Shown in pieces: positions 41,361-63,665 of a stretch of DNA of 64,000 bases. Position numbers and translations under genes: made by a program. Positions within the stretch are counted from its first letter, which is position 1. Every line of letters starts with the position of its first letter. The notes beneath the pieces were generated by a model. That model was given only the letters and a program-made list of their open reading frames with translations, was not told the origin of the DNA and ran no database searches. Origin of the DNA: Thermoanaerobaculia bacterium (GTDB lineage: Bacteria > Acidobacteriota > Thermoanaerobaculia > Gp7-AA8); the NCBI GenBank assembly GCA_035576005.1, contig DATLXH010000109.1, positions 33,058 through 97,057 on the forward strand. Direction: 5' to 3'.

Positions 41361-41446
41361 CTTTGGTGATGCTGATGCGTAACGTGAATCGTTGTCCTGC
41401 CAGTTAGCGGACCCATTCCGCTCGGAAACCGTGCGACTGAAGAACG

Positions 41447-41470
41447 AGACAGACAAGAGTGTCTGTCCTA
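41447..41470. repeat. GACAGACAAGAGTGTCTGTCCTACA hairpin-repeat family, copy 1 (single arm)
   Basis: Stem GACAGACA/TGTCTGTC with loop AGAG. Related to the palindromes at 52328 and 63553. Confidence 0.6.
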
Positions 41471-52314: not shown

Positions 52315-52327
52315 AACGCGAGCTGCG

Positions 52328-52390
52328 CGACAAAGACAAGAGTGTCTGTCCTACATGCGCGTCTGGGACAGACACTCTTGTCTGTCACGC
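52328..52390. repeat. GACA(A)AGACAAGAGTGTCTGTCCTACA nested palindrome, copy 2
   Basis: Two inverted arms around CATGCGCG, each arm itself a hairpin. It lies just after the 51628 gene stop. Confidence 0.65.
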
Positions 52391-52514
52391 GGACCGTCAA
52401 TTGAACGTCGTCGTTTGCACAAGCTGCCTCGTATCAACCAACCGATGCGCTTCGCACCCATGCCGTCATCTTCACGACGAAGGGCTGTGAGAAACAGCCG
52501 CTAGCCCGTGTCGC

Positions 52515-53978: not shown

Positions 53979-55380
53979 GGGGTTCCTCTGATTCAGGCTC
54001 ACTCTCTTCGTCCGTCTGCTTCGGAATCAAATCGTATTTCTTCGCATAATAACGAAACGAGCGGAATGACATCTGGAGCAGCTCGGCCGCCTGAGTCTGC
54101 ACTCCATCGGTCCGCGCCAGAGCCTTGAGCATGAAGGTCTTGCCGATGGTCTCCAGATGTTTTTCGAGACTCATGCCCTCGTCCGGGATCTCCCAGAGTC
54201 CTCCAGCCGTTTCGAGTCCCAGCACGACTTGATCCGGCAGCGAACGGGTAGTGACGACGTCCTCCGGCTCCAGAGCAATCGTCCTCTCGATCACATTCTC
54301 GAGCTCCCGCACGTTGCCGGGCCACGCATATTTTTCGAGCACGCGCATCGCATCGACCGAGATCCGCTTCTGCGGCATCCCCATGCTGCTGCAGAATTTG
54401 GAAATGAAATGGTGCGCCAGCAGGGGAATGTCCTCCTTCCGATGCCGCAACGGAGGAAGCTCGATTGGAATGACATTGATCCTGTAAAAAAGATCTTCGC
54501 GAAACGTTCCCTTCTGAATGGACTCGGCGAGATCGCGATTGGTGGCCGTCAGAATACGGACGTCTACCTGCACTTCGGCGTTACCTCCGACCTTGCGGAC
54601 AACACGGTCCTGCAGAACGCGGAGGAGTTTGATCTGCATTGCTGTGGTCATCTCTCCGATCTCGTCGAGAAAGACCGTTCCTCGCTCCGCTTCCTGCAGC
54701 AGCCCCTTCTTCTCGCGGATCGCTCCGGTAAACGCGCCTCGCTCGTGGCCGAAAAGCTCGGACTCGAGGAGATTTTCCGGAAGGGCGCCGCAGTTGATCG
54801 AAACGAATTTCCCGCGACGTCCGGAGTTGTAATGGATCGCCCGCGCGATCAGCTCTTTTCCTGTTCCTGATTCCCCGGAGATAAGGACGGTCGACGTGTT
54901 GGGAGCGATGCGGGCGACGATCGAAAAGATCTCCTGCATCTTGCGGCTTCTGCCGATGATGTTGTTGAACGTGAAGCGCTCTTCGAGCGCGTTCCGGAGA
55001 TGAATATTCTCGTCCTCGAGCTCGAGTCGCTCGAATGCTTTCCGGACGATGATCTTGAGCTCTTCGATATCGAACGGTTTGGCGATGTAGTCGAACGCTC
55101 CGGCCTTGAGTGCTTCGACAGCGGACCTGGTCGACGTGAATGCCGTGATCATGATGATCGGGAGTGACGGCTTCTGCGTCTTGACCTCTTTGATGAAGTC
55201 GATGCCGGAGCCGTCGGCCAGCATCAGATCGCAAAGAATGACGTCGGGCTCCTCTTTCGCGAACTGGATCCTGGCTTCGGCGAGGGACTCCACGCTCTCG
55301 ACCTTCCATCCTTCGCCTTCAAAGACGATGGTGAGAAAGTCGCGGAGGGAGGCTTCGTCATCAACAATAAGCAGGCTCAT
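53968..55380 (-). CDS. sigma-54-dependent response regulator (NtrC family). No cognate kinase gene is adjacent.
   Basis: Receiver MSLLIVDDEASLRDFL...ILCDLMLADGSG. AAA+ sigma54 activation domain with GESGTGKE...GAFTGA...ESELFGHE. C-terminal HTH. The start overlaps the helicase stop (ATGA). Confidence 0.92.
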   Translation of the reverse strand: MSLLIVDDEASLRDFLTIVFEGEGWKVESVESLAEARIQFAKEEPDVILCDLMLADGSGIDFIKEVKTQKPSLPIIMITAFTSTRSAVEALKAGAFDYIAKPFDIEELKIIVRKAFERLELEDENIHLRNALEERFTFNNIIGRSRKMQEIFSIVARIAPNTSTVLISGESGTGKELIARAIHYNSGRRGKFVSINCGALPENLLESELFGHERGAFTGAIREKKGLLQEAERGTVFLDEIGEMTTAMQIKLLRVLQDRVVRKVGGNAEVQVDVRILTATNRDLAESIQKGTFREDLFYRINVIPIELPPLRHRKEDIPLLAHHFISKFCSSMGMPQKRISVDAMRVLEKYAWPGNVRELENVIERTIALEPEDVVTTRSLPDQVVLGLETAGGLWEIPDEGMSLEKHLETIGKTFMLKALARTDGVQTQAAELLQMSFRSFRYYAKKYDLIPKQTDEESEPESEEPHES

Positions 55381-57554
55381 CGGGCGTGGAGATTATAGGA
55401 GTTCGCGCCGGCTGCTGCAGAACCGGCAGCAGCGCTCCAGTCATTTGTGAAGACCCCGCCCACGATTTCGATTCGGAGTGTTGACGGATTCGTCATCTCC
55501 CGAAGGTCCCATGAGAGAAGCCGCGAGAGGTAGCCCCTCCGGTCCTCGTCGAAAAACTCACCGCTCATTTCTTCGATCAGGATCTCGAGTCCGACCCGGA
55601 AACGCCCTGTGAGCAGCGCTTCAAAGTCCGGATCGAACGAGCCAGAACTGCGTAGAAGCGCTGCGAGCCGCTCACGCGAAGCAGTCTGCGATTGAAGCGA
55701 CGGCATCACGGAGCGCATGCGAGTCAACTCATCAGCCGCGCGGACAGCCTCGATGAGAGGCTCAGGCAGACCGTCGGCGTCGCGGAAATTGCGCGCGCGA
55801 CGAAGGTGTCGCGCAGCTGCGGCAGGCGCGATCTCGGTTGACAGCTCGCCCGCCAGCGTCACCTCGCGAAACCTTTTTCGCTCGCCGGAAGCAAAGACCT
55901 CATGCAGAAGGAGAACAGAATACGAAGTCGAGTGATCGACCGAAAGGTATGGCGATTCGTTTGTCGACGTCATGGAAAGAGCGTTTCCATCCGCGTCTTT
56001 GCCTGCAGGATCCGGGAGGAATCTCCGGCTCATCCTCGCCTTGCGAAGGACGATAGGCAGGAAAGATGACGCCCGGCCCTGCGACTCGTTCACGAAGTAG
56101 ATTGAGCTGACCGAAGACCGCTTCTGGCCGATACGACATGCACGAGCTTCGCGCTGCTCGAGCCGAACCATGTTCCAGGCCAGGTCGTAATGAATCACCG
56201 TACCCGCCTGCTGCAGGTTCAACCCCTCAGCGGCCATGTCGGTAGCGATCAGACAGGTGATCGCCCCTGAGCGAAATGCGTGAAAGACATCTTCGGACGT
56301 GACCCGGCCTGGCAGTCCTGCAGCCGAGCAGAGTCTGGACGACACGATTCCACATCGATGGAGCGGCGTGAGCAGCGCATAGAGAGACCGAGCCGTCGCT
56401 ACGGCCGAGGTATAGATCAACACTTCGGGCTCTTTGAGGGCAGCGAGCGTTTCCATGAGACGCGCGCGCTTCGGCTCGTCGATGTCTGAGGCAGCGACTG
56501 CCAGCCGTTCGAGCATTCTGATCTCGCGATCGATTCGGTCACCCAGTTCCGGGTCCGCTTGCGAAGGCGCTGACCAGAGATCGCGGAAAAGGACGTCCTG
56601 GAACTCGATCGCATCATCTTCGATACCAAACATCGCTCTGTAATCGCCTCTGCTCAAAAGAACACCTTTCAACCACGACTCCCGCGCACGCCGGTAGAAG
56701 CGCCCCTGGCGTCTCACCGACTCAATGAATGCGCTCCCGCTCGACTCGAGCCTCCTCCATAGAAAGGCGCGCACCAGTGCCACAGCGGATGCATCAGCCA
56801 GAAGAGGGGCATTGAGTGTCGCAATGGCCTCGGCAATCGCTGCGTGCGGATCGGATAGAGAAAAGTGGACGACACTTCGCTCCAGCCGAGCCAGTCGAAG
56901 CGCTCCCGACAAGACCTCGCGGCCGCGACGGACTATGAGCTCATCACGGATCCGCGCAATCGACTCCCGATTGCCCTGAGCAAAACTCTCCTGGAGCGAG
57001 CCGACGCCGTATGACCTGAGGAGATCATCCGCGGCGAACAGCGCGACAAGCGCGTGGAGATCTCCGATCGAATTGCAGATGGGCGTTGCCGTGATCAGTA
57101 GAACTTTGGCGCCCACCGCACGCAGCGCAAGCGATCGGTAACGCTTTCTTTTCGAGTTCCTGAACCTGTGAGCCTCATCCACGATAAGCAATCGCATTCC
57201 TTCGACTGAAGGCATGCAACCTCGCCCCGACAACGCCTCCTGACTTTCCAGAGATGCCGAAAGGCGGAATTGCTCGAGAAGGAGCGCCCACTGAGGAATG
57301 AGTGCGTGCGGAACAATCAGCTCCACTACAGCGCCGCGCGCTTCGAACCGCTGTGCTACCGCCGCCGCAATATAGGACTTTCCAAGGCCTGCGGCGTCGG
57401 CCAGGAGAACCCCTGGATAGATTTCCAGACTGCTCAGAATCCGATCGGTAGCTTCGCGCTGATGCGACGCAAGTAAGTCGGGCTCTACCTGAGTTCGCGC
57501 TTCGCGGACTTGCAAACTCATCAGAAACCGGGTGACGAGATCCTCGCTGTTCAT
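55377..57554 (-). CDS. SNF2/RAD54-family superfamily-2 helicase with a ~250-aa uncharacterised C-terminal region
   Basis: Walker A LLADAAGLGKS, DEAH-box LIVDEAHRFRN, and helicase-C motif VI HYDLAWNMVRLEQREARACRIGQK. The start overlaps the MTase stop (57551-57554). Confidence 0.85.
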   Translation of the reverse strand: MNSEDLVTRFLMSLQVREARTQVEPDLLASHQREATDRILSSLEIYPGVLLADAAGLGKSYIAAAVAQRFEARGAVVELIVPHALIPQWALLLEQFRLSASLESQEALSGRGCMPSVEGMRLLIVDEAHRFRNSKRKRYRSLALRAVGAKVLLITATPICNSIGDLHALVALFAADDLLRSYGVGSLQESFAQGNRESIARIRDELIVRRGREVLSGALRLARLERSVVHFSLSDPHAAIAEAIATLNAPLLADASAVALVRAFLWRRLESSGSAFIESVRRQGRFYRRARESWLKGVLLSRGDYRAMFGIEDDAIEFQDVLFRDLWSAPSQADPELGDRIDREIRMLERLAVAASDIDEPKRARLMETLAALKEPEVLIYTSAVATARSLYALLTPLHRCGIVSSRLCSAAGLPGRVTSEDVFHAFRSGAITCLIATDMAAEGLNLQQAGTVIHYDLAWNMVRLEQREARACRIGQKRSSVSSIYFVNESQGRASSFLPIVLRKARMSRRFLPDPAGKDADGNALSMTSTNESPYLSVDHSTSYSVLLLHEVFASGERKRFREVTLAGELSTEIAPAAAARHLRRARNFRDADGLPEPLIEAVRAADELTRMRSVMPSLQSQTASRERLAALLRSSGSFDPDFEALLTGRFRVGLEILIEEMSGEFFDEDRRGYLSRLLSWDLREMTNPSTLRIEIVGGVFTNDWSAAAGSAAAGANSYNLHAR

Positions 57555-60500
57555 CGCACGCCGAGACGACGGCGAACATAGGCGCTCAGAATCTCGTGCT
57601 CTTCGCTGGTGATTCCGAATAGTTTCTCAACGATCTGATCGATCTCCACCGCGATGTCCGGTCTGAGCACCGCCCGGCGGCCCAGCCGGACGAGATCGCC
57701 GCGGACCGCGTCGTTCGCGTGCACCTGCGGGAGCGGCAAGCGAGATACGAGCGTGCCGAAGAATCGCTGATGGAAATCCTTGGCGTGTTCCGCCGATGCG
57801 ATCGCGACGGCGTTCAGCACTGTCGAGTTGAGAAAGGCAGATAAGAAATGCGCCTCGTCAATGGAAACAGCATCCAGAAAGTACGTCGTCTGATTGGGGA
57901 TCAGAGGGAAGTCGGTCCCGGAGATCCTGACCATCTCCGGAAGTACGGCGGCCTGCAGCCCTTTGCTCACATCCTTCCAGACGACTTTCATCCCGAGGTG
58001 TTCGGGTTTGACGAACGAGAGGCGGAACGAATCGGGTGTGGTCGCCATGTGATTGGCAAGCTCGAGCACCCACGCGGGTGGATTGCTCCACCCTCGCATC
58101 GGAGGCCAGAGCATCCAGCACGAGGCACCGGCATGCCACCGTCGGACATCCCGGCCACGAACGGCACGACAGAGATGCTCGATGGGGATCCGAACGCGCG
58201 AGCCGGGTATCGACGCGCCATTCCCCGAGAGAACGAGCTCCGGTAGAAAGAAGCGATCGTTCGCGCCCGTCTTGACGCCCATCAACGGAACCCTGCCGAG
58301 AGTGTCGGAAAGGGGAGGGAAACTCTTTCGCAGCCTGTGAATCAGAGCGGAAACTTCTGGTGGAGCGAGGAGCCACTCCTGTTCGGTCACGATCTCGGCT
58401 CGGAGAGCCAGCCTCTCCTGTCCATCGCTCCAGATCGCGATGTCCCTCGTCACCCGTTGCCGCTTGGAAAGCGTGATCCCGAGAGGAAACGTATCAGCGC
58501 CAAATAGTTTCTTTCCGCGATCGCTCCAGTCGTGGAGTTGTGAGAGGTAGTTGGAGTGTCTTTCCCGCAGCTTCCATGCGTACCCTGCACTTGCAAACTT
58601 TGCCGGTACGAGCATGGACATCGCTCCACCCTCTTTCAGCAGATCAAAACTTTTCTCACAGAACGCCACGGCAAGGTCGCTCTGCTCGAACCCTTTCGAT
58701 TTTCCATCCGCGCCCCTTGCGCCAAAACTCTCATACCGGTCCCGGAACATCTGACGCGCGGCGGGCTCGATTCTCGACGATCGAACCCACGGCGGATTTC
58801 CGATGATCACGTCGAATCCCCCCTCCGAGAGGACCGCGCTGAAGTGAACATCAAACGAGAAGAAGTCGAGCTCACCCCGAAGGACGTTCGCAAGATGAAC
58901 CCTGGTTTCCTCGATTCGCCTCGCGAGGAAACTGGCAGCGTTGCTATCCACCTCGGAGCGCCTGTTGAGTCGCGGAAACAGCGGCGCATTTCCCGTCCGT
59001 ATGAACTGCAGCTCCTTTTCATCCTCAGTGATCGCGTGCTCGAGCATTGCCGCGGCAAGCTCCTCATCACCCTTGCGAAGTACGCGATACAAGTGGGGCC
59101 GCTCGTCCGGCGGCGCATGCCGGAACCTCTCGGTCATGCCCTTTCGAAGCTGAAGAGCGCATGACCACTTCTGATACAAGCTGATCCTTCCGGCTCCAAG
59201 AAAATCGAGAGGGCTGAGCAGAGCATTTCCCTGCAGGATATTTCGATCGAGATTCGGCAGTGGTCGCACGGAAGCCGCTGAAGCGGATGAGTCGGTCACG
59301 ATTGCGAGCCAGAGCCGAAGCTCGCAGAGCCGGACGGCTTCCCGTTTGAGATCGACACCGAACAGAGACCGCTCGACGATTTTCTGACGGAGATCGGGGT
59401 CCGTCGACCGCCCGACCCTTGTGTTCAGAGAGATCGTCAAACGCTCGATGCATTGAAGCGCTGACAGAAGAAACGCCCCGGAGCCGCAAGCAGGATCAAG
59501 CACGGTGAGATGCTCCAGCCGGTCCAGCAGGCCGACTGCCTGCTCGACCGACATTCCGCTCATTGGTGCTGACAAACCAGGTTTCAACGACCTGGCAAGC
59601 TCGTCATTACCCGCGGCGGCCCACAGGCTGATTGCCGAGGTAGCCAGAGCATCCACGATTTCCTTTGGCGTGTAGAAGCTGCCGCTGGACGCACGTTGAT
59701 CCGACGCCATGAGCGATTCGAAAACTTTCCCGAGCATCTCGGGATCGATATGCACTCCGTCCTCGTCGTTCTCATCGAGACAGAAAGAGAACTTCTCGAA
59801 TGTCGAAAAGATCTCCACAAGGGTCTGGTTCGACACTCTCATCCCGGCGTGATCCCTTTCGTAAGATGACGGGTCGAACAGACCACCATTCAGGTAAGGA
59901 ATCTCCCCCAGCTCGAGAGCCCGGGATGCTCGGTGAATCGGCGGTGTGTTGAGGCAGCCGAAGAAGAGCGGAACGAGCAACTCGTCGTAAAGCGGCCGCT
60001 CAGAACGGGCAAGGCGTCTGACACGATTCTTGAGAAACTGCCGGTCACCCGCCAGCCATCCTTTCTCCTGTACGAAGTGGAGAAAGAGAATTCGGGACAA
60101 CATGAGAAGTGCCTGGGATCGCGCTGCTTCCTCTGATCCGCCGTCGGATACGAGTTCGGCGGTTACCGCGACTATCGCTTCACGAAACCGGCGGAAGAAT
60201 CGCCGCGACAGAGCCTCCCGATCAAGCGCTTTATCCAACCTCGCTTCGATCTCTTCGCGATCAGGTACCGTCCCGGAATCGAGCTGAAGCTCAGTAAGAC
60301 GGCGCGAGGCCTCACTATCGGCGATGGAGAGATCAACCTCGAGGTGGCGGACACGTCCCACTGAAGTCTGATCACATAGAACGAACCATCGTGGTCGATT
60401 GTCATCTACCAAAATGATGATGATTTTTCGTAGTCGATTTCTGCGCCGATAAAATTTGAATAGATGGACGACGGCACTTCGGCCCGTCGTGCCCCTGTCT

Positions 60501-60763
60501 CTAACGAACAGGATCTCCAGAATGCCAAGAGAACAGGCGTGAAAGATCGTCAATGAGTCAGACAACTGGAAATCGAGTCCGCACTCCTGCCATATGCGCG
60601 AGCTCACAGGTCGCAAGTCGATCGGGTAGTTAAGCGAGCGGAAAAGCTCGGCGACTTCGCCGTCCCCCTCCCCACCACAACCAGCCGGTCCCGGGCTTTC
60701 ACCACCCACAGCGACGCGGCGGCTCATGCCATCCCTCGGGGTCCCGCCGCTATACTGGGCCAC
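57551..60763 (-). CDS. large gamma-class N6-adenine DNA methyltransferase (Eco57I/PglX/DrmMI-like, ~1070 aa) with a long N-terminal region and a C-terminal putative TRD. The N-terminal extent is uncertain.
   Basis: Motif X SFYTPKEIVDAL, motif I LTVLDPACGSGAFLLSAL, and motif IV VIIGNPPWVRSS (NPPW), in gamma-class order. ~500 aa follow the catalytic core. The annotated ATG lies only 5 nt from a divergent gene start, so the true start is probably internal. Confidence 0.85.
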   Translation of the reverse strand: MAQYSGGTPRDGMSRRVAVGGESPGPAGCGGEGDGEVAELFRSLNYPIDLRPVSSRIWQECGLDFQLSDSLTIFHACSLGILEILFVRDRGTTGRSAVVHLFKFYRRRNRLRKIIIILVDDNRPRWFVLCDQTSVGRVRHLEVDLSIADSEASRRLTELQLDSGTVPDREEIEARLDKALDREALSRRFFRRFREAIVAVTAELVSDGGSEEAARSQALLMLSRILFLHFVQEKGWLAGDRQFLKNRVRRLARSERPLYDELLVPLFFGCLNTPPIHRASRALELGEIPYLNGGLFDPSSYERDHAGMRVSNQTLVEIFSTFEKFSFCLDENDEDGVHIDPEMLGKVFESLMASDQRASSGSFYTPKEIVDALATSAISLWAAAGNDELARSLKPGLSAPMSGMSVEQAVGLLDRLEHLTVLDPACGSGAFLLSALQCIERLTISLNTRVGRSTDPDLRQKIVERSLFGVDLKREAVRLCELRLWLAIVTDSSASAASVRPLPNLDRNILQGNALLSPLDFLGAGRISLYQKWSCALQLRKGMTERFRHAPPDERPHLYRVLRKGDEELAAAMLEHAITEDEKELQFIRTGNAPLFPRLNRRSEVDSNAASFLARRIEETRVHLANVLRGELDFFSFDVHFSAVLSEGGFDVIIGNPPWVRSSRIEPAARQMFRDRYESFGARGADGKSKGFEQSDLAVAFCEKSFDLLKEGGAMSMLVPAKFASAGYAWKLRERHSNYLSQLHDWSDRGKKLFGADTFPLGITLSKRQRVTRDIAIWSDGQERLALRAEIVTEQEWLLAPPEVSALIHRLRKSFPPLSDTLGRVPLMGVKTGANDRFFLPELVLSGNGASIPGSRVRIPIEHLCRAVRGRDVRRWHAGASCWMLWPPMRGWSNPPAWVLELANHMATTPDSFRLSFVKPEHLGMKVVWKDVSKGLQAAVLPEMVRISGTDFPLIPNQTTYFLDAVSIDEAHFLSAFLNSTVLNAVAIASAEHAKDFHQRFFGTLVSRLPLPQVHANDAVRGDLVRLGRRAVLRPDIAVEIDQIVEKLFGITSEEHEILSAYVRRRLGVR

Positions 60764-60768
60764 CAGCG

Positions 60769-62502
60769 ATGCGACCCGGCCCTGATTACCTGAAGCGAGT
60801 GCTCGCGGGCTCTACCTTCGGGCTCTACATGGCCCACCTGCTCTACTTTCTCAATCCACAGATCGAGATCACGCCGTGGCGCATCATTCGCGCAAGCATC
60901 CTCTACGGCATCACCTGCGGCATCCTTTTCGGCTCGCTCCTCTGGCTGCTCAGAATTCTCCGCCGAAAACTTTTCCCGATTCACGCGCGAATGGGCCGGC
61001 GACATGGCTTCGGACTCACCGTCGCAGCGACGTTCTTTTCCACGATGGTGTTCTGGCTGCACACCTTCGTGCTGCGCATCTACCTTCCCATCGGCGCCGT
61101 ACGAATCCTCATCAAGGCTACCAACCTGATTGCGTTCGTAGCCTTTCTGCTGTTGATCCTCTGGGTGATCGAGCGGAATGCGACCGTGCGTGTCTCCCGA
61201 ATCCTGACTTGCGTCGGCGCCGGCCTCATTGCAGTATCGTGCGTGGTCCTTTTCCTCCGGCGCGATCGCTACCAGGAGGAGTCGAGCAACGCGCCGCCGA
61301 TACGGATCGACGCGGTGACAAACAAACGGCCTCTGCTCATCGTGGCCATTCGAGACCTTCCATACGACTGGCTGATCACGCTCAAGGGTGAAGAACGGCT
61401 CAACTTCTTCGACCGCGCAATCGACCACGATTTCTTTGCCCGGCTCGAGCCCTTTCCCACAACCAGCCCAAAGGCCCTGTGGGCGTCTCTGGTCACCGGC
61501 AAGCTTCCCCACCGGCATGGGGTGACAGGCCGGTTCTCCTACGAGAGCTTCTTTACGGGCAGCGGTCACGACGGCCGCTTTCTGATCCTTCCAGCCGGAG
61601 TTGGTTTCCGGGTCTGGGGGCTTCTCCCACCAGTCCGCCGCATCTCGGCGCAGCTCCCCTCCGGGGACGCACTGCCATTCTGGTCTGCCTTCGAGCGGCT
61701 CGGCGTTCAATCGAGCGTGATCGGGTGGCCGTCGACGAACGTCCGGCACAATCCGGCCTCCTTCATGGTGACCGAAACGTTTCTTCGCCAGGGAAAAGGG
61801 GGGAACGAGATCACCCCTGTATCGCGGAACGCCGAGATCGCGGCTTTGCTCCGGTCGCCGAGCAGCAAGGATCCCAGTCGCTTTTCCCAACTCCCGACTC
61901 CAGCAGCTTCCGTAGCAAGGCAAGCTCTCGCTTTCGATCTGTCCGCCGTAGCGATCGCCCGCTCGGAGCTCCGAGAATCGCCGCGTCCTCTCACTGTCCT
62001 CTCCCTTGGCGGATTCGCCGACGTTCAAAATTCGGTGGGAATCGATTCGAATCGCCTCCCCGACGCAACAAGCAGCCGGGGTCGCGTGGTGCGCGCCTAC
62101 ATCGAGGAGCTCGACTCGCTTCTCGGGTCCATCGAGCAGCAGTTTCCCGAGCAGACCATCATTGTGGTCTCGCCATCGGGACCCAGTCCTCCGGCCATCC
62201 CTGCGCATCCCATAGCAGTCGCAATCAAAGTGATGAAGGACGACGATCCGGGAGTCGAAGATGGATTCGTGATGATCCATGGCGCAGGGATGAGGTCTCG
62301 CCCCAATCCTCAGCCGGCACGTACCGTCGATATCGTACCGACCATGTTGTTCATCTCCGGACTCCCGATCGCGCGTGACATGGATGGACGCATCCTGACG
62401 GAGGCCTTCGACGACGACTTTCTCCGGGTTCACGCTCTGTCGCTGATTCACACCTACGAACCGGAGGAGGCGCCACTCACCAGTCGCGGTGGGCGCCGCT
62501 AA
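60769..62502 (+). CDS. membrane-anchored alkaline-phosphatase-superfamily enzyme (type I phosphodiesterase / nucleotide pyrophosphatase-like)
   Basis: Five N-terminal TM helices, then ...LLIVAIRDLPYDW...FPTTSPKALWASLVTGKLPHRHGVTG. This resembles the NPP motifs SID..R.D and PT.TFPNH.S..TG..P..HGI. The opposing 652-aa ORF is compositionally implausible. Confidence 0.62.
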   Translation: MRPGPDYLKRVLAGSTFGLYMAHLLYFLNPQIEITPWRIIRASILYGITCGILFGSLLWLLRILRRKLFPIHARMGRRHGFGLTVAATFFSTMVFWLHTFVLRIYLPIGAVRILIKATNLIAFVAFLLLILWVIERNATVRVSRILTCVGAGLIAVSCVVLFLRRDRYQEESSNAPPIRIDAVTNKRPLLIVAIRDLPYDWLITLKGEERLNFFDRAIDHDFFARLEPFPTTSPKALWASLVTGKLPHRHGVTGRFSYESFFTGSGHDGRFLILPAGVGFRVWGLLPPVRRISAQLPSGDALPFWSAFERLGVQSSVIGWPSTNVRHNPASFMVTETFLRQGKGGNEITPVSRNAEIAALLRSPSSKDPSRFSQLPTPAASVARQALAFDLSAVAIARSELRESPRPLTVLSLGGFADVQNSVGIDSNRLPDATSSRGRVVRAYIEELDSLLGSIEQQFPEQTIIVVSPSGPSPPAIPAHPIAVAIKVMKDDDPGVEDGFVMIHGAGMRSRPNPQPARTVDIVPTMLFISGLPIARDMDGRILTEAFDDDFLRVHALSLIHTYEPEEAPLTSRGGRR

Positions 62503-63399: not shown

Positions 63400-63550
63400 G
63401 AAGGACGCGTCTCTCACGGACCTTCAACGTGAAAGATGCGGAGAGGGGCCCGGATGCGAGACGCACGATGGTTCTGCGACGAAGGTGTAGTCACCACCAT
63501 GTCGAGGAGCGAGAGCAGTTGGGCAACGAAACGTCCAAACGAAAATGTCG
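63400..63550. mobile_element. degenerate third MITE copy (~75% identical internal segment, TIRs decayed)
   Basis: GCGTCTCTCACGGACC...GGATGCGAGACGCACGATGGTTCTGCGACGAAGGTGTAGTCACCACCATGTCGAGGAGCGAG aligns to the internal region of copies 1 and 2. Confidence 0.5.
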
Positions 63551-63552
63551 CC

Positions 63553-63612
63553 GTGACAGACAGGAGTGTCTGTCCTACACGAGCATGTAGGACAGACACT
63601 CCTGTCTGTCAC
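63553..63612. repeat. perfect 27-bp-arm nested palindrome GTGACAGACAGGAGTGTCTGTCCTACA-cgagca-TGTAGGACAGACACTCCTGTCTGTCAC, copy 3 of the family
   Basis: Each arm is itself a hairpin (GACAGACA/TGTCTGTC). It ends ~54 nt upstream of the clpX-like ATG. Confidence 0.75.
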
Positions 63613-63665
63613 GCGCGGGAAGATTCCGCTTCAGAAATGAGCGCTATACTCACAGGCTCAGGACG

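Follow-up and report, generated by a model that had tools for sequence, protein, structure and literature searches.

The 64,000-nucleotide stretch analysed here (referred to as the window in the following; Thermoanaerobaculia bacterium, phylum Acidobacteriota, GenBank assembly GCA_035576005.1, contig DATLXH010000109.1, positions 33,058 to 97,057) encodes on its reverse strand a large DNA methyltransferase of the N6-adenine type (MTase) along with, directly downstream and overlapping with it, an SNF2-like ATPase of the helicase type. Both genes form a functionally linked, translationally coupled unit. With about even confidence, this pair is understood here as a two-subunit, nuclease-free methyltransferase-translocase module of restriction-like ancestry which today fulfills a chromosomal role, i.e., epigenetic regulation or maintenance. 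MTase-helicase pairs are mostly regarded as phage defence. In this case, the loss of nucleases together with the retained catalytic motifs and the fixed position in the core chromosome points to a selected, ATP-dependent function which does not involve cutting. The features of the pair are given below, with residues counted in amino acids (aa).

57551..60727, reverse strand: MTase gene, ATG start at 60727, 1058 aa
57551..60763, reverse strand: longest MTase open reading frame (ORF), GTG start at 60763, 1070 aa
60218..60670, reverse strand: N-terminal part of the MTase, aa ~20-170, an alpha/beta domain specific to the clade, without nuclease signature
59678..60205, reverse strand: helical spacer of the MTase, aa ~175-350, MmeI_hel/DUF7814-like (sub-threshold Pfam, all-helical model), strongly conserved
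58478..59677, reverse strand: predicted gamma-class MTase catalytic domain, aa ~351-750, with FYTP, DPACGSG and NPPW motifs and a long helical insertion
57554..58477, reverse strand: predicted C-terminal TaqI_C-like target-recognition domain, aa ~751-1058, from fold matches
57551..57554, reverse strand: ATGA overlap of MTase stop and helicase start
55377..57554, reverse strand: SNF2-like ATPase (helicase) gene, 725 aa
56070..57473, reverse strand: SNF2-like ATPase core, aa ~28-495 (Pfam SNF2-rel_dom, ResIII, Helicase_C)
55377..56069, reverse strand: C-terminal region of the helicase, aa ~496-725, made up mostly of an insertion specific to the lineage and a low-complexity tail

A first-pass annotation, made from the letters of the sequence, had described an N6-adenine MTase and an SNF2 helicase joined by a 4-nt overlap, and the ORFs, the ATGA, the motifs and the Pfam domains all confirm this description. 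Regarding the MTase size, the large protein with a C-terminal recognition domain holds, but public gene calls start at the ATG at 60727 (1058 aa), and ~410 instead of ~500 residues follow the NPPW motif. The protein is 100% identical to a public entry (P0001, 'DNA methyltransferase [Thermoanaerobaculia bacterium]').

The linkage of both genes is evident from their relatives. More than 120 full-length MTase relatives exist at ~44-47% identity, the named ones belonging to Thermoanaerobaculia or Acidobacteriota. A scan of species-representative genomes yielded 80 MTase loci, including Thermoanaerobaculia (43-46% identity), many Gemmatimonadota (30-35%) and scattered relatives (25-30%) in Cyanobacteria, Anaerolineae, Fibrobacterota, Fraserbacteria and 'Deltaproteobacteria'. 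The co-occurrence of both genes in other genomes, on which the proposal of a module depended, was found across phyla: wherever a locus comprises 1.5 kb or more of flank, tblastn using the window proteins shows an SNF2 gene adjoining the MTase on the same strand. Stop/start overlaps of 4-14 nt between both genes recur in many orthologous loci of both Thermoanaerobaculia and Gemmatimonadota. Moreover, clustering of the neighbourhood ORFs of 85 related loci left MTase and helicase as the only genes common to all lineages, which argues against a mere vicinity of unrelated genes, namely an ordinary Type IIG enzyme possessing its own nuclease next to a RapA-like housekeeping helicase. RapA is indeed among the weak matches of the helicase, in the PDB as well as in NCBIfam (54.5 bits at a cut-off of 576). 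However, the adjacency is conserved across phyla while every other neighbour changes, the pairwise identities of MTase and SNF2 correlate with r = 0.94, the MTase N-terminus lacks conserved PD-ExK residues and the helicase comes nearest to those HKD-SNF2 proteins which accompany related MTases. This explanation, which the co-occurrence data already contradict, is considered highly improbable.

The MTase is predicted to be a gamma-class enzyme with a TaqI_C-type recognition domain. Its translation contains FYTP, DPACGSGAFL and NPPW, with DPxCGSG and NPPW being invariant across 31 orthologues, and it is matched by Pfam Eco57I (77.7 bits), MmeI_Mtase (44.1 bits, cut-off 27) and N6_Mtase (41.4 bits) as well as by the PADLOC model REase_MTase_IIG (2.7e-42). 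DUF7814 (22.5 bits) and MmeI_hel (19.6 bits) match below threshold at aa 220-313 of the 1070-aa ORF. Foldseek related the full-length structure model (predicted local distance difference test, 77.9) to CamA, PglX/BrxX, M.BseCI, MmeI (structure 5hr4, E 5e-14), BpuSI and M.TaqI, with fold matches to CamA, M.BseCI, MmeI and M.TaqI covering the recognition-domain region. Among the orthologues, mean pairwise identity amounts to 0.51 in the recognition domain, 0.61-0.64 in the catalytic core and 0.38 in the N-terminal domain. Many polar residues of the recognition domain are invariant, and neither domain swapping nor hypervariability was seen there in the orthologue alignment.

With regard to nucleases, the first-pass annotation had recognised none in the MTase N-terminus or the helicase C-terminus, which is in agreement with the comparison of orthologues: the N-terminal domain of the MTase features no invariant D, E or K and no PD-ExK endonuclease motif, and the helicase C-terminus is unconserved. 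The N-terminal domain is homologous between Thermoanaerobaculia and Gemmatimonadota (hhalign 95.5%, E 1.3e-8), which suggests an old, selected and probably non-catalytic domain. For MmeI homologues of this kind, a domain was proposed to replace the nuclease and to contact the helicase (Morgan et al., 2009; PMC2731913). The N-terminus of a 1380-aa Fibrobacterota MTase, featuring an ExK-like 'FEIK' motif, was considered as a relative of the N-terminal domain and dismissed, as hhalign gave no match.

The helicase is matched by Pfam Helicase_C (55.6 bits), SNF2-rel_dom (41.2 bits) and ResIII (35.1 bits), shows the motifs GLGKS, DEAH and QREARACRIGQ and resembles CHD1, Snf2, Sth1, LSH and RapA among PDB sequences. 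Motifs I, II, III, V and VI are kept in Thermoanaerobaculia and Gemmatimonadota, and the conservation of motifs I-VI across both phyla at 27-46% identity requires long purifying selection on the ATPase. Helicases of the window clade begin ~25 aa ahead of motif I. Neither these nor the Gemmatimonadota helicases contain PLDc_2 or any other nuclease domain in Pfam searches, whereas the same search detects PLDc_2 in distant relatives. The helicases of the latter comprise ~1100 aa with an N-terminal PLDc_2 (HKD) nuclease (loci L060, L078, L080, and L083) and are matched along most of their length by PADLOC 'HKD+Snf2' (C3a139); their loci lie beside AbiEii, Shedu and dynamin-PLD genes or on plasmids. 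As judged from the sequences, neither protein of the window clade carries a conserved nuclease.

The C-terminal part of the window helicase is peculiar to its lineage. Most orthologues comprise 520-640 aa without the window residues ~525-610 and ~700-725, and tblastn matches usually stop at aa ~513. An effector within aa 480-725, as suggested earlier, was therefore rejected, since this region is unconserved, consists mostly of insertion and tail and is missing from most orthologues. Positions 55730-55980 (aa ~525-610) represent a lineage-specific insertion, and positions 55377-55460 (aa ~700-725) an Ala/Gly/Ser-rich tail which reaches into the start codon of the downstream gene, a sigma-54 response regulator of the NtrC type. 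The ATGA overlap of helicase stop and NtrC start noted before is present in the window but peculiar to this genome: in orthologous loci, the gap amounts to 100-4000 bp, and the helicases end correspondingly earlier. The tail and the earlier stops of the orthologues suggest that the original stop codon was lost in the window genome and the former spacer is now read through. At aa 455-475, the window helicase reads DLAWNMVRLEQREARACRIGQ compared to the elsewhere strict clade consensus DiPWNPvkLdQRNGRAxRIGQ, with the arginines being retained; its lineage is the most divergent of the set compared.

The window is core chromosome and not an island. The genes rpoB and rpoC are located at 18.1-26.8 kb of the window, ~30 kb from the pair, and are accompanied by ribosomal-protein genes, tsf, rpsB, frr, pyrH and a tRNA cluster. 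The GC content is flat across the pair locus, and no tRNA is found near it. Within Thermoanaerobaculia, inheritance of the pair is vertical and shared with its housekeeping neighbours. The gene order in most loci of this class is HHH_3, an alkaline phosphatase-like (AlkP-like) gene, MTase, SNF2, NtrC, DUF192, rhomboid, PTPS, DUF1802, DnaJ, ECF sigma and Ham1, and the collinear housekeeping block around the pair exceeds 15 kb with occasional insertions or an inversion. Identities of MTase and SNF2 correlate with those of the AlkP-like gene (r = 0.89 each), of the rhomboid gene (r = 0.88 and 0.89, respectively) and of NtrC (Spearman 0.78 and 0.72, respectively). Retention was determined on 80 metagenomic loci which were fetched via the AlkP-like neighbour and were thus not selected by the MTase itself. 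Of these, 66 extend for 1 kb or more on the side in question, and 65 of them contain the MTase; of the 47 extending for 4.5 kb or more, 46 contain SNF2. The exceptional locus (L139, 1-9784) is 97% identical to carriers over AlkP-HHH_3 (L134 and L138), while the similarity ends ~110 nt into the MTase and neither MTase nor SNF2 occurs within 10 kb. Here, the pair was either recently deleted or replaced, or the assembly is chimeric. In two of the 65 loci (L161 and L168), the MTase is split over two reading frames. The Gemmatimonadota pairs are likewise flanked by housekeeping genes, namely PhoU, a Na/Pi transporter, an aldo-keto reductase, a HAD hydrolase and a Ser/Thr kinase; these flanks vary between subgroups and keep their order within them, with the pair being retained. 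Core position, vertical inheritance with housekeeping neighbours and retention in 65/66 loci do not support the framing of the pair as novel defence.

Comparison with described systems places the pair closest to MmeI homologues without PD-ExK which are flanked by a helicase. The general architecture has thus been known since 2009 (Morgan et al., 2009; PMC2731913), and the view of a novel module architecture had to be given up in favour of these homologues and of DnmA-YeeB-YeeC (PMC7261158; PMC9973331). Compared to the MmeI family (Type IIL/IIG), the MTase features the architecture of spacer, gamma-class MTase and fused recognition domain but lacks the N-terminal PD-ExK. The MmeI homologues without PD-ExK were reported to have a helicase and a GIY-YIG protein as neighbours (PMC2731913), the best known being DnmA(YeeA)-YeeB-YeeC of Bacillus subtilis. 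DnmA hemimethylates GACGAG and tunes promoters without a restriction or anti-phage phenotype, acting as an orphan regulatory MTase from a restriction-modification relic (PMC7261158; PMC9973331). The window pair shares with it a large MmeI-type MTase, a non-nuclease N-terminal domain of ~100-170 aa and an SF2 helicase directly downstream, an assignment which follows the published definition (PMC2731913). In contrast to DnmA-YeeB-YeeC, no YeeC-like GIY-YIG/T5orf172 gene is present as a third gene. Likewise, no third gene is conserved after the helicase, with NtrC, MerR and peptidase genes following in Thermoanaerobaculia and PhoU and aldo-keto reductase genes in Gemmatimonadota. Moreover, the B. 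subtilis locus lies in an island of low GC content which was acquired horizontally and also carries toxin-antitoxin and recombinase genes, whereas the pair described here is core-chromosomal and retained across a class and in a second phylum, with a helicase clearly under selection.

The first-pass annotation had pointed out the absence of the usual partners (DrmABC, PglZ/BrxC, a nuclease), which agrees with the PADLOC search of the 45 other window ORFs: apart from a single weak match (mad2, 7e-7), it returned no gene similar to DrmABC, BrxC/DUF499, PglZ or a nuclease. The resemblance to DISARM, PglX of BREX and a split Type ISP enzyme pointed out at the same time does not amount to membership, with curated scores far below the cut-offs and partners missing. 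The pair is no member of DISARM, BREX, MANTIS/Hma or Type ISP, as each of them lacks at least one defining component here. With class 1 DISARM, it has in common the domain pair of N6-adenine MTase (DrmMI) and SNF2 helicase (DrmD). However, the DrmD models fail on the window helicase (NCBIfam NF038317, 98.1 bits at a cut-off of 610; NF038318, 84.6 bits at 950), PADLOC matches to DrmD and DrmMI are only partial, and DrmA (a DUF1998-associated helicase), DrmB and DrmC are absent from the window, the Pfam-matched called genes of three orthologous loci and the conserved neighbour clusters. The DpdE model reaches 101 bits at a cut-off of 500. The MTase fold and the helical N-terminal spacer resemble PglX/BrxX (Foldseek E ~1e-17), which BrxHII accompanies in type 3 BREX, but the PglX models of BREX-1, -2, -5, and -6 give 36-50 bits at cut-offs of 400-900, and PglZ, BrxC, BrxA, BrxB and BrxL are missing from the window. 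Type ISP enzymes (LlaGI, LlaBIII) likewise unite an SF2 motor with a gamma-class MTase and a recognition domain, yet in one polypeptide with an Mrr-type nuclease; here, two ORFs occur without an Mrr/PD-(D/E)xK domain.

A partnership of ATPase and MTase is also found in HKD(PLD)-SNF2 systems with an N6-MTase (PADLOC 'HKD+Snf2' as well as BREX-related Type-2/MANTIS, Gao_RL and Hma relatives; PMC12839542; bioRxiv 10.64898/2026.09.23.753747). The distant HKD-SNF2 systems possess a homologous MTase (25-30% identity over aa ~166-1050) and a homologous SNF2 core, adjacent and on the same strand. Unlike BREX-related, Hma and MANTIS systems, the window-clade helicase has no nuclease fusion (HKD in type 2, PD-(D/E)xK in type 1), a DUF3780 protein is missing and the context is no defence island. 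Furthermore, neither the window nor the conserved neighbour clusters of the 85 related loci contain a DUF499 AAA+ ATPase (MtsA/HmaC, BrxC-like); the representative flanking genes which were inspected with Pfam turned out to be housekeeping or other defence genes. In MANTIS, the ATPase is required for loading the MTase (bioRxiv 10.64898/2026.09.23.753747). Clade-conserved orphan MTases, i.e., CamA of Clostridioides difficile, Dam and CcrM, are similar with respect to the lineage-wide, vertical inheritance of an adenine MTase without a cognate nuclease, and of all structures, CamA matches the MTase and recognition-domain part best (template modelling score 0.7 on target). These enzymes act alone, whereas the window MTase has an obligatorily linked SNF2 ATPase and ~350 extra N-terminal residues.

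In the proposed mechanism, the ancestor would have consisted of an MmeI/Eco57I-type MTase and an SF2/SNF2 motor which carried or recruited a nuclease. Today, like DnmA and the enzymes of the MmeI family, the MTase may place N6-methyladenine (m6A) throughout the host chromosome at a short asymmetric motif, of which one strand is modified. Its N-terminal domain, which is specific to the clade and stands in place of the MmeI nuclease, could dock the SNF2 motor. The motor in turn would spend ATP on loading, moving or recycling the MTase on nucleoid DNA or, alternatively, on responding to unmethylated sites. The function under selection would accordingly be chromosomal and not classical restriction. 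A farther-reaching version is put forward as a rather doubtful suggestion: the SNF2 ATPase could be obligatory for the deposition or read-out of chromosomal m6A, which would make the pair a bacterial counterpart of DDM1/LSH-DNMT and a restriction-derived, lineage-wide epigenetic system in Thermoanaerobaculia and Gemmatimonadota. If the motor were indeed required for writing or reading m6A on the host chromosome, the pair would clearly exemplify how a restriction-like system is co-opted for chromosome biology, and it would offer a first access to the epigenetics of two soil lineages which are abundant and poorly cultured. Several of the metagenome-assembled genomes appear to be derived from long reads (single contigs of 1.9-5.9 Mb), the raw signal of which may hold the methylation motif.

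Several points weigh against a chromosomal role. Methylation motif, ATPase activity and MTase-SNF2 interaction are all inferred, and retention was measured at the level of loci in Thermoanaerobaculia only. One or two substitutions shift the specificity of MmeI-family enzymes, and an identity of 0.51 in the recognition domain is thus no proof of constant specificity. Close to motif VI, the window helicase differs from the consensus of its clade (WNM for WNP, QREAR for QRNGR). Vertical inheritance is compatible with defence, a nuclease encoded elsewhere could be recruited, and DnmA and YeeB homologues of Vibrio crassostreae protect against some phages (cited in PMC9973331). The pair might still act against phages or plasmids, the MTase marking self and the complex blocking unmethylated DNA without cutting, as in BREX, or recruiting a nuclease from elsewhere. 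This is a possible explanation, albeit not a probable one. In its favour, every homology leads to proteins of the defence type, with the MTase related to Type IIG, DrmMI, and PglX and the helicase to DpdE, DrmD, BrxH, and HKD+Snf2. The nuclease-bearing relatives in defence islands and on plasmids fit as well, and so do the ATPase motifs retained despite the absence of a nuclease. Against this stand the near-universal retention at a fixed core locus, the co-divergence with housekeeping neighbours, the lack of shuffled or hypervariable recognition domains and the loss or degeneration of both ancestral nuclease positions. Moreover, defence genes were found neither near the pair in the window nor among those genes which were examined in the related loci of both phyla.

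The reverse objection is that the pair is a decaying restriction-like relic, in which the MTase alone functions as an orphan according to the DnmA model of B. subtilis and the helicase is kept by operon linkage. DnmA-YeeB-YeeC, showing no defence phenotype, was interpreted in this way (PMC9973331), and the read-through-like tail of the window helicase, its substitutions near motif VI, the two frame-split MTases and the loss of the pair from one locus would fit. Still, the intact ATPase motifs argue against a simple relic, as do their conservation over two phyla, the retention of the helicase in 46/47 loci and the maintained translational coupling, and decay is regarded as improbable. The chromosomal, nuclease-free module remains the reading followed here.

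The neighbourhood of the pair was examined for further components. Downstream of the helicase, the order of a sigma-54 NtrC regulator (Pfam Response_reg/Sigma54_activat), DUF192 and Rhomboid was described correctly before. A functional link to the regulator was rejected, as the overlap is specific to the window genome and genes intervene in several orthologous loci. Upstream, a divergent gene which had gone unmentioned (60769..62502, forward strand) encodes a membrane-anchored member of the alkaline-phosphatase superfamily (Pfam Phosphodiest), i.e., the AlkP-like neighbour. It was considered as an analogue of PglZ and dismissed, since it features ~5 N-terminal hydrophobic segments resembling transmembrane helices (by eye), has no PADLOC hit, is absent from the Gemmatimonadota loci and adjoins the pair no more tightly than the HHH_3 gene beyond. 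It is treated as a syntenic neighbour which is absent outside Thermoanaerobaculia. The starts of MTase and AlkP-like gene lie head-to-head at a distance of ~40 bp (60727-60769; 35-134 bp in L001, L003, and L005), and the promoters must therefore overlap each other or the coding regions. A promoter and terminator scan of 53.4-63.3 kb gave nothing exceeding the shuffled expectation.

Palindromic repeats at 52325-52394 and 63547-63616 flank the block and were considered as borders of a mobile island, which was rejected because of a further copy at 41445-41468. This intergenic element of 58-70 nt with the core GGACAGACACTCCTGTCTGTCACG, itself a hairpin, gave four matches compared to none expected by chance. 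As the additional copy at 41.4 kb indicates, it is a dispersed element resembling repetitive extragenic palindromes, two copies of which happen to bracket the block from rhomboid to HHH_3.

Among the distant relatives, the 1380-aa MTases of Fibrobacterota and 'Deltaproteobacteria' (L080:9488-13627 and L085:3743-7900) end in a DUF6577/AbiEi antitoxin-like domain, with PADLOC AbiEi matching the L080 protein at 5e-32, and an AbiEii toxin gene follows directly (L080:13700-14785 and L085:7942-9018). Both represent an MTase-antitoxin fusion inside a defence island, with Shedu being present in L080 as well. Finally, the plasmid pJM1F of Lactococcus cremoris (L087, 833-9326) encodes a split helicase of 1233 aa and an N-6 MTase of 1106 aa, followed by a stand-alone TaqI_C specificity cassette in inverted orientation and by an invertase of the Mpi family, which looks like a phase-variable, split Type ISP-like system.

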